Shown here: piece by piece, positions 8,373-9,353 of the stretch
Numbering within the stretch: the first letter of the stretch is position 1
How the letters are laid out: each line of letters begins with the position of its first letter
Source: Delftia acidovorans NBRC 14950
GTDB lineage: Bacteria > Pseudomonadota > Gammaproteobacteria > Burkholderiales > Burkholderiaceae_C
Direction of reading: 5' to 3'
Length of the DNA: 32,000 nucleotides
Assembly (NCBI RefSeq): GCF_001598795.1
Contig: NZ_BCZP01000005.1
Coordinates: 90,001-122,000, forward strand
Made by a program: the position numbers and the translations under genes
Notes under the pieces: model-generated
Databases searched by the model: none
What the model saw: the letters and a program-made list of their open reading frames with translations, nothing else
What the model was told of the DNA's origin: nothing

Positions 8373-9353
8373 GTGATTGAAGTAATGTCCCGACTAATTA
8401 GACCTGCAGATATTCCGGAAACACTTTGGCATGCCAAAACAACGTGTTTGCATCTTGCCCCGACACTTCGGAGAGCTTGGGAGCACTTGCTACTACACGC
8501 CGGACTCGAAGATAAGGCTCGGCTACCGGTTCCTGAGGGAAGAATCGGCGGCTTGAGTAAGGAAGATACGGACGATCATCTGGCATGGCGCTTCAGTGGG
8601 TCGTCGGCGCGGGTTCAGCTCAGTTTTCTCGATCCAGAGGAAAAACTTACTGAGGTGGCAGATGCGTTTGCAAAAGTCTTTTCTGGTGGAACCGTGTTGC
8701 TTGCAGACCTACCCTGCGGCTCAGGTGCTGCAGCATTGACGTTGCTGGCAAACATTGCTGAGTTGCGGCGCCAAGACCGAATCCCACGTAACCCGCTTAA
8801 CGTCAAGATTGTTGGCGGTGAGTTGTCAGAGTTCGCACGAGGCTATGCCGACCTAGCAACAAAACACATCAAAGATGCGTTGGCCGAACAAGCAATCTGG
8901 GTATCCGCTGAGTTTCTTTCCTGGAATGCATTGGATAAATTTTCTACAGCAGAACTAACTAACCGCCTGACCGTGCTTGGCCAGGAATGTTCAGCCCGCC
9001 TAATAGTTCTGGCCAATTTTTCCGGATTTTTACAGCGCGAGGGAAAATGGAAGGAGGCTCTCCCTCAATTTGAAAACTTATTCCTGCATGGCCGAGCTCA
9101 TAACAGTTTTGTACTCTGGATTGAGCCGCAAACAAACGAGGTGCTTGGCTCTGGGGGATTCTTCAGTAGAGCTATTAATTGGTTTAAAAAACTGTTTTCA
9201 GCACATCACACTAAGGACGAGCAAGATGCTCTAGTTGTTGAGAACCTCGGAAAGAGTGCTGCTGACGTCCAACACCCATTAAAGGATCATCAATTCAAAG
9301 TTCAACTAGTAGTTCAGCGCTTCGATTTACCTTTGAACGGAGCGAAGGCATGA
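8373..9353 (+). CDS. class-I SAM-methyltransferase-fold protein with degenerate catalytic motif IV
   Basis: 326-aa ORF; the start is GTG 8373 or ATG 8385. Motif I is VLLADLPCGSGAAAL (8706-8726 = DLPCGSG). An acidic residue ends beta2 (KIVGGELSEF). Motif-III-like is FLSWNALD. At the position where N6-adenine/gamma-class enzymes carry (D/N)PP(Y/F), the sequence is LIVLANFSGF (NFSGF, 9015-9029). The stop overlaps the RT start (ATGA, 9350-9353). Confidence 0.8.
   Translation: MIEVMSRLIRPADIPETLWHAKTTCLHLAPTLRRAWEHLLLHAGLEDKARLPVPEGRIGGLSKEDTDDHLAWRFSGSSARVQLSFLDPEEKLTEVADAFAKVFSGGTVLLADLPCGSGAAALTLLANIAELRRQDRIPRNPLNVKIVGGELSEFARGYADLATKHIKDALAEQAIWVSAEFLSWNALDKFSTAELTNRLTVLGQECSARLIVLANFSGFLQREGKWKEALPQFENLFLHGRAHNSFVLWIEPQTNEVLGSGGFFSRAINWFKKLFSAHHTKDEQDALVVENLGKSAADVQHPLKDHQFKVQLVVQRFDLPLNGAKA

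Follow-up and report, generated by a model that had tools for sequence, protein, structure and literature searches.

A methyltransferase-fold protein encoded with a UG36 reverse transcriptase in Delftia acidovorans NBRC 14950

A stretch of 32,000 nucleotides (nt) from Delftia acidovorans NBRC 14950 (contig NZ_BCZP01000005.1, positions 90,001 to 122,000 of the forward strand), referred to here as the window, carries a gene for a protein with methyltransferase motifs, and the end of this gene overlaps the start of a reverse transcriptase (RT) gene. The locus raises the question of what a methyltransferase-like protein does beside an RT. An initial annotation had likened the protein to N6-adenine methyltransferases with a replaced catalytic tetrapeptide. 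With high confidence, the open reading frame (ORF) can be assigned to a self-contained cassette of two genes with a UG36 defence-type RT, in which it encodes the methyltransferase-fold subunit. The association of UG36 with a methylase is already published, and the locus is a further member of that known system. Within the cassette the protein, termed the partner here, is tentatively read as a methyltransferase of a non-canonical kind.

Fold and motifs of the partner protein

The ORF at 8373..9353 of the forward strand is present in the window with 326 codons and a GTG start. Among the 120 best homologues most proteins are 322 amino acids (aa) long and begin with M-x-R-L-I, thus the conserved start is ATG 8385 and not GTG 8373. 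The GTG is probably an in-frame upstream alternative that is not used, and residues are numbered here in the 322-aa protein from ATG 8385. Conservation figures are for 127 full-length representatives of clusters at 50% identity, and the AlphaFold2 model of the partner was built from 29 homologues. The features of the gene, with their sources, are:

8385..9353, forward strand: coding sequence of the methyltransferase-fold partner, 322 aa (ORF, homologue starts, AlphaFold2 model, Foldseek)
8577..8612, forward strand: N-terminal cap helix segment H65-R76, with H65 at 94%, S73 at 95% and R76 at 99% (alignment, AlphaFold2)
8706..8726, forward strand: motif I, D108-L-P-C-G-S-G114, the glycine-rich S-adenosylmethionine (SAM) loop at the end of β1 (AlphaFold2, conservation)
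8814..8822, forward strand: motif II, G144-G145-E146, whose acidic residue ends β2 (AlphaFold2; D or E at 146 in 127/127 representatives)
8922..8936, forward strand: motif III, W180-N181-A-L-D184, directly after β3 (AlphaFold2, conservation)
9015..9029, forward strand: motif IV position, N211-F-S-G-F215, directly after β4 (alignment, motif scan, hhalign)
9117..9128, forward strand: post-β5 motif W245-I-E247-P248, with W at 97%, E at 99% and P at 96% (alignment)

The peptides that had been picked out from the sequence, DLPCGSG, GGE, WNALD and LIVLA-NFSGF (residues 206-215), are each in place. E146 would bind the ribose of SAM, and W245-I-E247-P248 is a candidate lining of the acceptor site.

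The AlphaFold2 model has a mean predicted local distance difference test score (pLDDT) of 93.1 and a predicted template modelling score (pTM) of 0.92. Residues 1-100 form a helical N-terminal cap, which is followed by seven predicted strands with alternating helices (residues 102-109, 138-146, 171-179, 204-210, 241-248, 289-296 and 303-314) that include a terminal β6-β7 hairpin. DLPCGSG, GGE, WNALD and NFSGF lie at the C-terminal ends of β1, β2, β3 and β4, in agreement with the placement proposed for them from sequence. The seven-strand topology, together with Foldseek matches to the Protein Data Bank (PDB) and to viral structures, bears out the methyltransferase fold of the initial annotation, and the partner is predicted with high confidence to be a compact SAM-dependent methyltransferase fold of class I under a helical cap at its N-terminus. 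The two ends of the protein had been described as regions with no recognisable motif. For the C-terminal ~100 residues this has to be revised, as they are modelled as β5-β7 of the same fold plus a helical insertion. The N-terminal region is a helical cap in the model, and it carries the near-invariant H65, S73 and R76.

The best Foldseek matches in the PDB are MrsA, Dot1L/DOT1A, BCDIN3D, TTHA1280, SABATH enzymes and MnmC/YfcK (probability 0.96-1.0), with modest scores (E ~1e-4, template modelling (TM) score 0.3-0.36). In the viral structure library, cap, Hen1-like and further methyltransferases of class I scored about as high, among them a viral small-RNA 2'-O-methyltransferase. Searches of the single sequence against Pfam, NCBIfam, PHROGs and the PDB sequence set found nothing significant, nor did 29- and 91-sequence profiles of the partner against the PDB sequence set. 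When 91 diverse members were compared with Pfam, only weak generic matches were found, with Methyltransf_31 and Methyltransf_25 in 5 members each and CheR in 4. The fold assignment holds, and the family is a structural outlier that has no close relative.

An exhaustive profile search recovered the family in 392 clusters at 50% identity from several phyla. On the side of the SAM pocket, conservation is close to complete (D108 99%, P110 96%, G112 100%, G114 96%, D/E at 146 100%, W180 98%, D/N at 181 99%), so the reading that the SAM-pocket motifs are retained is upheld across the 127 representatives; D184 is kept in only ~50% of them. D108 is a Tyr in the copy from Aliarcobacter, and in one representative. 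The Aliarcobacter faecis partner reads FFSNFSGA and LWIEPG at the later motifs. R128 of helix αA is found in 100% of representatives, and its neighbours P134, P137 and L138 in the αA-β2 loop region in 91-93%. The partner is more conserved than its RT in 18 of 20 locus pairs.

Conservation at the motif IV position is N211 87%, F212 91%, S213 89%, G214 72% and F215 60%. A distant subgroup (~9/127) has S-A-F-S-G, with Ala at 211 and all other motifs retained, and a member of this subgroup is still paired with a UG36 RT. The absence of both prolines, first seen in the one sequence, extends to the whole family as [N/A]-F-S-G. The pattern [DNS]PP[YFWH] is absent internally from 268 family proteins in a regular-expression scan, the sole exception being an SPPF that occurs by chance at residue 4 of a single protein; the same scan of the homologues gave neither a canonical motif elsewhere nor a sign that the alignment is shifted. 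To call the tetrapeptide "replaced" presumes an NPPY ancestor, and what is observed instead is a conserved family-specific [N/A]-F-S-G, with Ala211 in a subgroup. By its conservation this motif is specific to the family and not a decayed relic, and [N/A]-F-S-G, W-x-E-P and the cap residues H65, S73 and R76 are under strong purifying selection.

The initial annotation had also likened the protein, by the order and spacing of its motifs, to gamma-class N6-adenine DNA/RNA methyltransferases. Unpermuted class I methyltransferases all have I-II-III-IV as their default motif order, so this order is not diagnostic of the gamma class. None of the 91 members matches Pfam N6_Mtase, Eco57I, UPF0020 or MethyltransfD12 at E <= 1. 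There is no target-recognition domain, as apart from the N-terminal cap the 322-aa model consists of a single methyltransferase domain. No DNA N6-adenine methyltransferase is found among the top 50 PDB fold matches, the structural neighbours being capped enzymes that act on small molecules, proteins or RNA ends. The 91-sequence profile of the partner (the 29-sequence profile for Dot1L) was aligned by hhalign with single archetype sequences, of which M.TaqI, RsmD, HemK and Dot1L were confirmed as full-length matches to PDB entries:

M.TaqI: probability 0.3%
type I HsdM from locus L006: probability 0.3%
RsmD: probability 0.8%
Thermus thermophilus PrmA: probability 1.7%
Dot1L: probability 0.3%
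Escherichia coli HemK/PrmC: probability 36%, E 3.8e-4, 120 columns

The Pfam result, the values for M.TaqI and HsdM and the single-domain model do not sustain the proposed kinship. In the HemK alignment motifs I and II are matched and N-F-S-G falls on N-P-P-Y, which weakly suggests that Asn211 is positionally equivalent to the Asn of NPPY; this alignment does not support membership of the partner in the DNA N6-adenine family. Sequence-specific DNA methylation by the partner is unlikely. A Dot1-like identity, suggested by the top fold match and by N-N-F-A-F in Dot1L, was rejected, as hhalign pairs motif I alone. A PrmA-like identity, suggested by "ANLYA" after β4, was likewise rejected, with motif IV unaligned at the low probability listed above. 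The PADLOC profile "mad2" (MADS system) shows weak matches in 10/91 partner homologues, P0232, P0238, P0241, P0242 and P0260 among them (best E 2.8e-5), mainly in the motif I-II region.

Pairing with the UG36 reverse transcriptase

The RT gene begins within the last codons of the partner gene, and the features of the junction and of the RT are:

9350..9353, forward strand: ATGA stop/start overlap of the partner and RT genes (sequence)
9350..11068, forward strand: UG36 RT of 572 aa, modelled with a C-terminal helical domain behind the polymerase core (PADLOC, AlphaFold2, Foldseek)
10058..10069, forward strand: catalytic Y237-V-D-D240 of the F-R-Y-V-D-D box (invariant in 39 homologues)

The downstream protein matches nearly the whole PADLOC profile RT_UG36, over positions 2-555 of 557 (E 6.3e-207). 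To follow the pair, 24 related loci (L001-L024) were collected from genomes and metagenomes; since L003 duplicates L002, 23 of them are independent. A UG36 RT homologue lies directly downstream of the partner in 21 of the 23, and also in two further loci, the plasmid copy L025 and L026, which belongs to the S-A-F-S-G subgroup. Of the two that are unpaired, L019 ends at a contig edge and L022 is a deletion remnant. The junction is an ATGA overlap in 12/20 independent loci and in the plasmid copy L025, and in the remaining intact loci the genes overlap by 1 nt or are separated by no more than 11 nt. The ATGA coupling reported for the window is therefore real and recurs in related loci, and the picture of an obligate, translationally coupled RT partner is borne out, with the RT directly downstream wherever this can be checked and usually with the ATGA overlap.

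Three loci look damaged: the partner of L018 is interrupted by an in-frame stop, the RT frame of L015 ends early, and the match in L023 is fragmented. Two candidates for natural methyltransferase-RT fusions, the 663-aa protein P0176 and locus L022 (6001-7278), were rejected because both are deletion remnants. P0176 joins the partner at residue ~245, and L022 at residue ~218, to the middle of the RT (about residue 158 or 327).

A relation to a genuine fusion is seen with another RT group. The N-terminal part of the RT_UG35 profile is matched by 91/91 partner members (best E 3.7e-16); in one of them the match runs over profile positions 27-232, spanning the cap through β5. From these profile matches the partner is taken, with high confidence, to be an unfused homologue of the UG35 N-terminal "methylase" domain. 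No similarity of the partner to the N-terminus of UG25 was detected. Since a homologous domain is fused to an RT in UG35, a physical complex of partner and RT can be argued for on the Rosetta-stone principle, and this fusion and the ATGA coupling together suggest that the two proteins may form a stoichiometric complex. UG35 and UG25 were described as methylase-RT fusions, and UG36 as associated with separate "methylase domain" genes, by Mestre et al. (2022, NAR 50:6084, PMC9226505). In that study UG36 was considered to have possibly a common ancestor with UG35 and UG25, a defence role was predicted for it, and it was left unclassified, with "no evidence" of a C-terminal αRep-like domain (PMC9226505). 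No later literature characterising UG36, UG35 or UG25 was found.

The AlphaFold2 model of the RT (39 homologues, pLDDT 90.8) has a polymerase core and is all-helical from ~294 to 552. Foldseek aligns it over ~550-650 columns with the hexameric DRT6, AbiA, DRT4/UG15, Abi-P2 and AbiK, at TM scores of only 0.34-0.42. In a relative, the match of the RT to the UG35 and UG25 profiles extends far into the C-terminal domain. The similarity in fold suggests that the UG36 RT might work like AbiK, DRT4 and DRT6, i.e., by protein-primed, untemplated synthesis. Class 1 defence-associated reverse transcriptases (DRTs) have been summarised as untemplated (PMC13174585). DRT4 primes on Tyr125, and the single-stranded DNA of DRT4 and DRT6 is normally trimmed by host exonucleases and accumulates once a phage SSB-like protein protects it (PMC12783706). 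Within residues 94-123 of the UG36 RT there are two invariant tyrosines, Y108 and Y123, on either side of a loop region that the model places between helices, which recalls the Tyr125 priming residue of DRT4; Y14, Y22 and Y55 in the N-terminal part of the RT are also invariant.

The mobile module and its genomic neighbours

The two genes are part of a larger block of DNA that is shared between hosts:

8206..11145, forward strand: two-gene module with a ~180-nt leader, the partner, the RT and a 77-nt tail (blastn, GC content)
8206..8384, forward strand: upstream leader, kept only among close relatives (blastn comparison)

By blastn, 8206-11145 shares 86-88% DNA identity with the loci from Rhodoferax (L009) and Comamonas (L001), with unrelated flanks on either side. 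The guanine-cytosine (GC) content of the module is 48-53%, compared with 58-69% in the flanks. The shared block, its unrelated flanks and the distinct GC content together mark a self-contained 2.9-kb mobile module. Hosts of the system are found in Beta-, Gamma- and Alphaproteobacteria, Cyanobacteria, Verrucomicrobiota, Actinobacteria (including a metagenome-assembled genome of Bifidobacterium), Campylobacterota and Chloroflexi/Anaerolineae, a spread over at least six phyla. No partner homologue was found in phage records, and a plasmid search gave one copy. Locus L025 is on the 140-kb Aliarcobacter faecis plasmid pAFAEC (NZ_CP053838.1, 4283-8639), where the cassette lies inside a type I restriction-modification operon. 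A 570-aa gene there ends 1 nt into the partner gene, and it may be an extra component in that lineage.

The leader at 8206..8384 probably holds the promoter and the 5′ untranslated region. Together with 11069-11145 it forms non-coding DNA that is co-conserved in the copies from Rhodoferax, Comamonas and "Pantoea sp. 18069". The sequence TTGA(A/G)T...TGTTAC(G/A)TAAT, ~70-95 nt upstream of the ATG, may be a promoter; a scan of the leader with the sigma-70 consensus gave no match. A search of Rfam for a non-coding RNA (ncRNA) likewise gave no match, and the leader folds no better than shuffled sequences (z = +0.58). The intergenic space is not conserved among the loci: L004 has 43 nt on the upstream side, L002 and L006 have 25-47 nt on the downstream side, and in L025 an upstream gene overlaps by 1 nt. 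On these grounds no sign of an ncRNA was detected, though distant loci were not compared by a covariance search.

A search for a conserved third gene was negative, as only one gene recurs adjacent to the pair, and this is specific to the cyanobacterial clade; scattered restriction-modification methyltransferases lie nearby in places and none is universal. The cyanobacterial gene encodes an RNase_T/DEDD 3′-5′ exonuclease (Pfam RNase_T, E 2e-11) and begins 12-47 nt after the RT in six loci:

L002, 10740-11420: RNase_T/DEDD gene
L006, 10747-11364: RNase_T/DEDD gene
L011, 8701-9381: RNase_T/DEDD gene
L012, 8711-9391: RNase_T/DEDD gene
L013, 8708-9418: RNase_T/DEDD gene
L021, 8732-9439: RNase_T/DEDD gene

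The exonuclease is absent from the window and from the proteobacterial copies. By analogy with DRT4, it could be a built-in nuclease that trims the product. The neighbours of the cassette elsewhere are type I and II restriction-modification genes, Mrr and HicB.

In the window a separate defence-type gene lies upstream of the cassette at 3132-7373 (forward strand). It encodes a 1413-aa protein with a weak N-terminal Mrr-like nuclease match, TPR repeats, a weak GreA/GreB-C-like match and PIN, the last being the PIN of the "TPR-GreAB-C-PIN" system (PF20698, E 9e-19). Between this gene and the cassette, outside of the 8206-11145 module, 7465-8067 (forward strand) encodes a 200-aa protein with a hydrophobic N-terminus and weak C-terminal HEPN-type matches (Swt1-like HEPN, DUF4145, RiboL-PSP-HEPN), which matches phrog_18019 over its full length (E 3e-6). 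Amidase_2 (endolysin-like) and DUF1353 genes are present at 227-1868 (reverse strand), and a Bro-N/anti-repressor Ant-like gene at 11532-12485 (forward strand). These flanking phage-type genes suggest that the island lies within or next to the remnant of a prophage. From 13200 onward the genes are ordinary chemotaxis and two-component genes.

Proposed function and relation to known systems

In the proposal that is favoured here, the partner would bind SAM, as the conservation of its pocket suggests, and would act within the putative complex with the RT as a catalytically competent, non-canonical methyltransferase. This enzyme would receive its substrate from the polymerase and not find it by sequence-specific reading of DNA; nascent protein-primed single-stranded DNA, a nucleotide and the polymerase itself are the candidates. 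The residues that favour such a working enzyme are those on the acceptor side, F212, S213, W245, E247, P248, H65, S73 and R76, which are as conserved as the pocket. As an interpretation of conservation the proposal is tentative, with a chance somewhat short of even, and several points weigh against it. The canonical amino-methyltransferase catalytic motif is absent, and the Ala211 subgroup still pairs with a UG36 RT, so Asn is not a universal catalytic residue. The family is about neutral in charge (median pI 6.5), which is atypical of a protein that binds nucleic acid on its own. As the fold matches are weak (E ~1e-4, TM 0.3-0.38), no specific substrate class can be transferred from them. The AbiK/DRT4-like mechanism of the RT is a suggestion drawn from fold similarity. 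Finally, a SAM sensor without catalytic activity would account for the conserved pocket equally well.

A sensor is the strongest of the alternatives, although somewhat unlikely. The partner would then be a regulatory subunit, and SAM or S-adenosylhomocysteine occupancy, or a phage anti-methyltransferase or SAM-degrading factor, would gate the polymerase. There are precedents for SAM sensors with a methyltransferase fold (SAMTOR), and SAM is destroyed by some phages. A pocket that is 99-100% conserved in the absence of the canonical tetrapeptide, an N211 that one subgroup can dispense with, the neutral charge, the lack of a substrate-recognition domain, and the tight coupling to the polymerase, fused in UG35, would all fit a sensor. 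However the acceptor-side residues, as conserved as the pocket, are not obviously needed by a pure gauge; they could be part of the RT interface. A more specific and rather speculative form of the idea, to which only a small chance is given, is that the partner is a SAM gauge or decoy: loaded with SAM it would keep the UG36 polymerase silent, and SAM depletion by a phage (SAM lyase or hydrolase), or a phage anti-methyltransferase protein, would change its state and release protein-primed, untemplated DNA synthesis, by which the infection would be aborted. If this were true, the system would be a guard on the methylation-based immunity of the cell, and the cyanobacterial DEDD exonuclease would keep the basal product in check. 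That the partner is instead a structural pseudoenzyme, a scaffold or assembly factor for an RT oligomer with no functional SAM binding, is improbable. The invariant R128 and its conserved neighbours would be consistent with it, since by class I topology the αA-β2 loop should lie away from the SAM site and may resemble a protein interface; so would the Tyr at position 108 in two sequences, and deletion remnants in which the pair decays together. The near-total conservation of G112, G114, the acidic end of β2 and W180-D181 over 392 clusters is hard to explain without a ligand.

The remaining alternatives would give the partner a nucleic-acid substrate of a more familiar kind. In an ncRNA-templated system like the class 2 DRTs (DRT2, DRT9, DRT10), the partner would methylate the template RNA or the cDNA. 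The ~180 nt upstream and 77 nt downstream that are co-conserved in close relatives could be seen in this light, as could the RNA-end methyltransferases among the fold neighbours (BCDIN3D and the viral small-RNA 2'-O-methyltransferase), but the lack of an Rfam match, the ordinary folding of the leader, the variable intergenic spacing and the full-length architecture modelled for the RT, which resembles untemplated class 1 enzymes, make it very improbable. Least probable is that the initial comparison was right in the strict sense, and that the partner is an orthodox gamma-class N6-adenine DNA methyltransferase with a drifted motif IV, which marks host DNA as self in the manner of restriction-modification or BREX. 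The motif order, the "D-x-P-C-G-S-G" form of motif I and the Pro after β5 do resemble amino-methyltransferases, and the placement of NFSG on the NPPY of HemK and the weak "mad2" matches point the same way. Set against these are the 268 homologues without (D/N/S)PP(Y/F/W), the single-domain model with no target-recognition domain, the negative Pfam, hhalign and PDB fold comparisons given above, and a nuclease partner that is not conserved.

A polymerase paired with a methyltransferase fold is seen in three groups only, UG25, UG35 and UG36. Related enzymes have recently been found to make unusual DNA products, i.e., random single-stranded DNA, homopolymers and protein-templated repeats, and a SAM-dependent partner could add a step of chemical modification, or a layer of metabolite sensing, to RT-based immunity. 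Relative to the 2022 description, what is new is the family-specific [N/A]-F-S-G with no canonical motif and no target-recognition domain, the class 1-like architecture modelled for the RT, the boundaries of the 2.9-kb module and the cyanobacterial exonuclease variant. These additions leave the picture of the identity of the system unchanged.

Among known methyltransferases, the capped class I enzymes MrsA, Dot1L/DOT1A, BCDIN3D, SABATH and MnmC/YfcK likewise have a seven-strand core under an N-terminal helical cap. Their substrates are mutually unrelated, therefore no function can be transferred from them to the partner. Dot1L has N241-N-F-A-F245 after β4, with the same spacing from N to F as N211...F215 of the partner, a resemblance in sequence only. 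M.TaqI, type I HsdM and HemK/PrmC share with the partner the linear order of motifs I-IV, the acidic end of β2 and an Asn right after β4. The partner family differs from their (D/N/S)PP(Y/F/W) in the absence of both prolines and of the aromatic residue at position 4, and M.TaqI, HsdM, RsmD and the Pfam N6-adenine families have no profile-level similarity to the partner.

For the RT, AbiK, Abi-P2, AbiA, DRT4 (UG15) and DRT6 (UG12), protein-primed defence polymerases that work without a template (PMC12783706; PMC13174585), give a full-length structural alignment with the modelled UG36 core and C-terminal helices, whereas sequence similarity to them is limited to the polymerase core. Unlike UG36, these are single-protein systems that have no methyltransferase-fold partner. 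UG35 and UG25, which are class 1 UG/Abi enzymes, have RT core and C-terminal domain profiles that match the UG36 RT. In these two groups the parts are fused, whereas in UG36 they are separate, translationally coupled genes; neither the UvrD-like helicase that accompanies UG35 nor the DUF1848 gene that accompanies UG25 is adjacent here. The UG36 of Mestre et al. 2022 was unclassified, whereas the alignment of the present RT model with class 1 enzymes covers its full length. With an RT that matches RT_UG36 from end to end, a methyltransferase-fold gene directly upstream and a location in a defence island, the Delftia locus and the UG36 of Mestre et al. 2022 are the same system.

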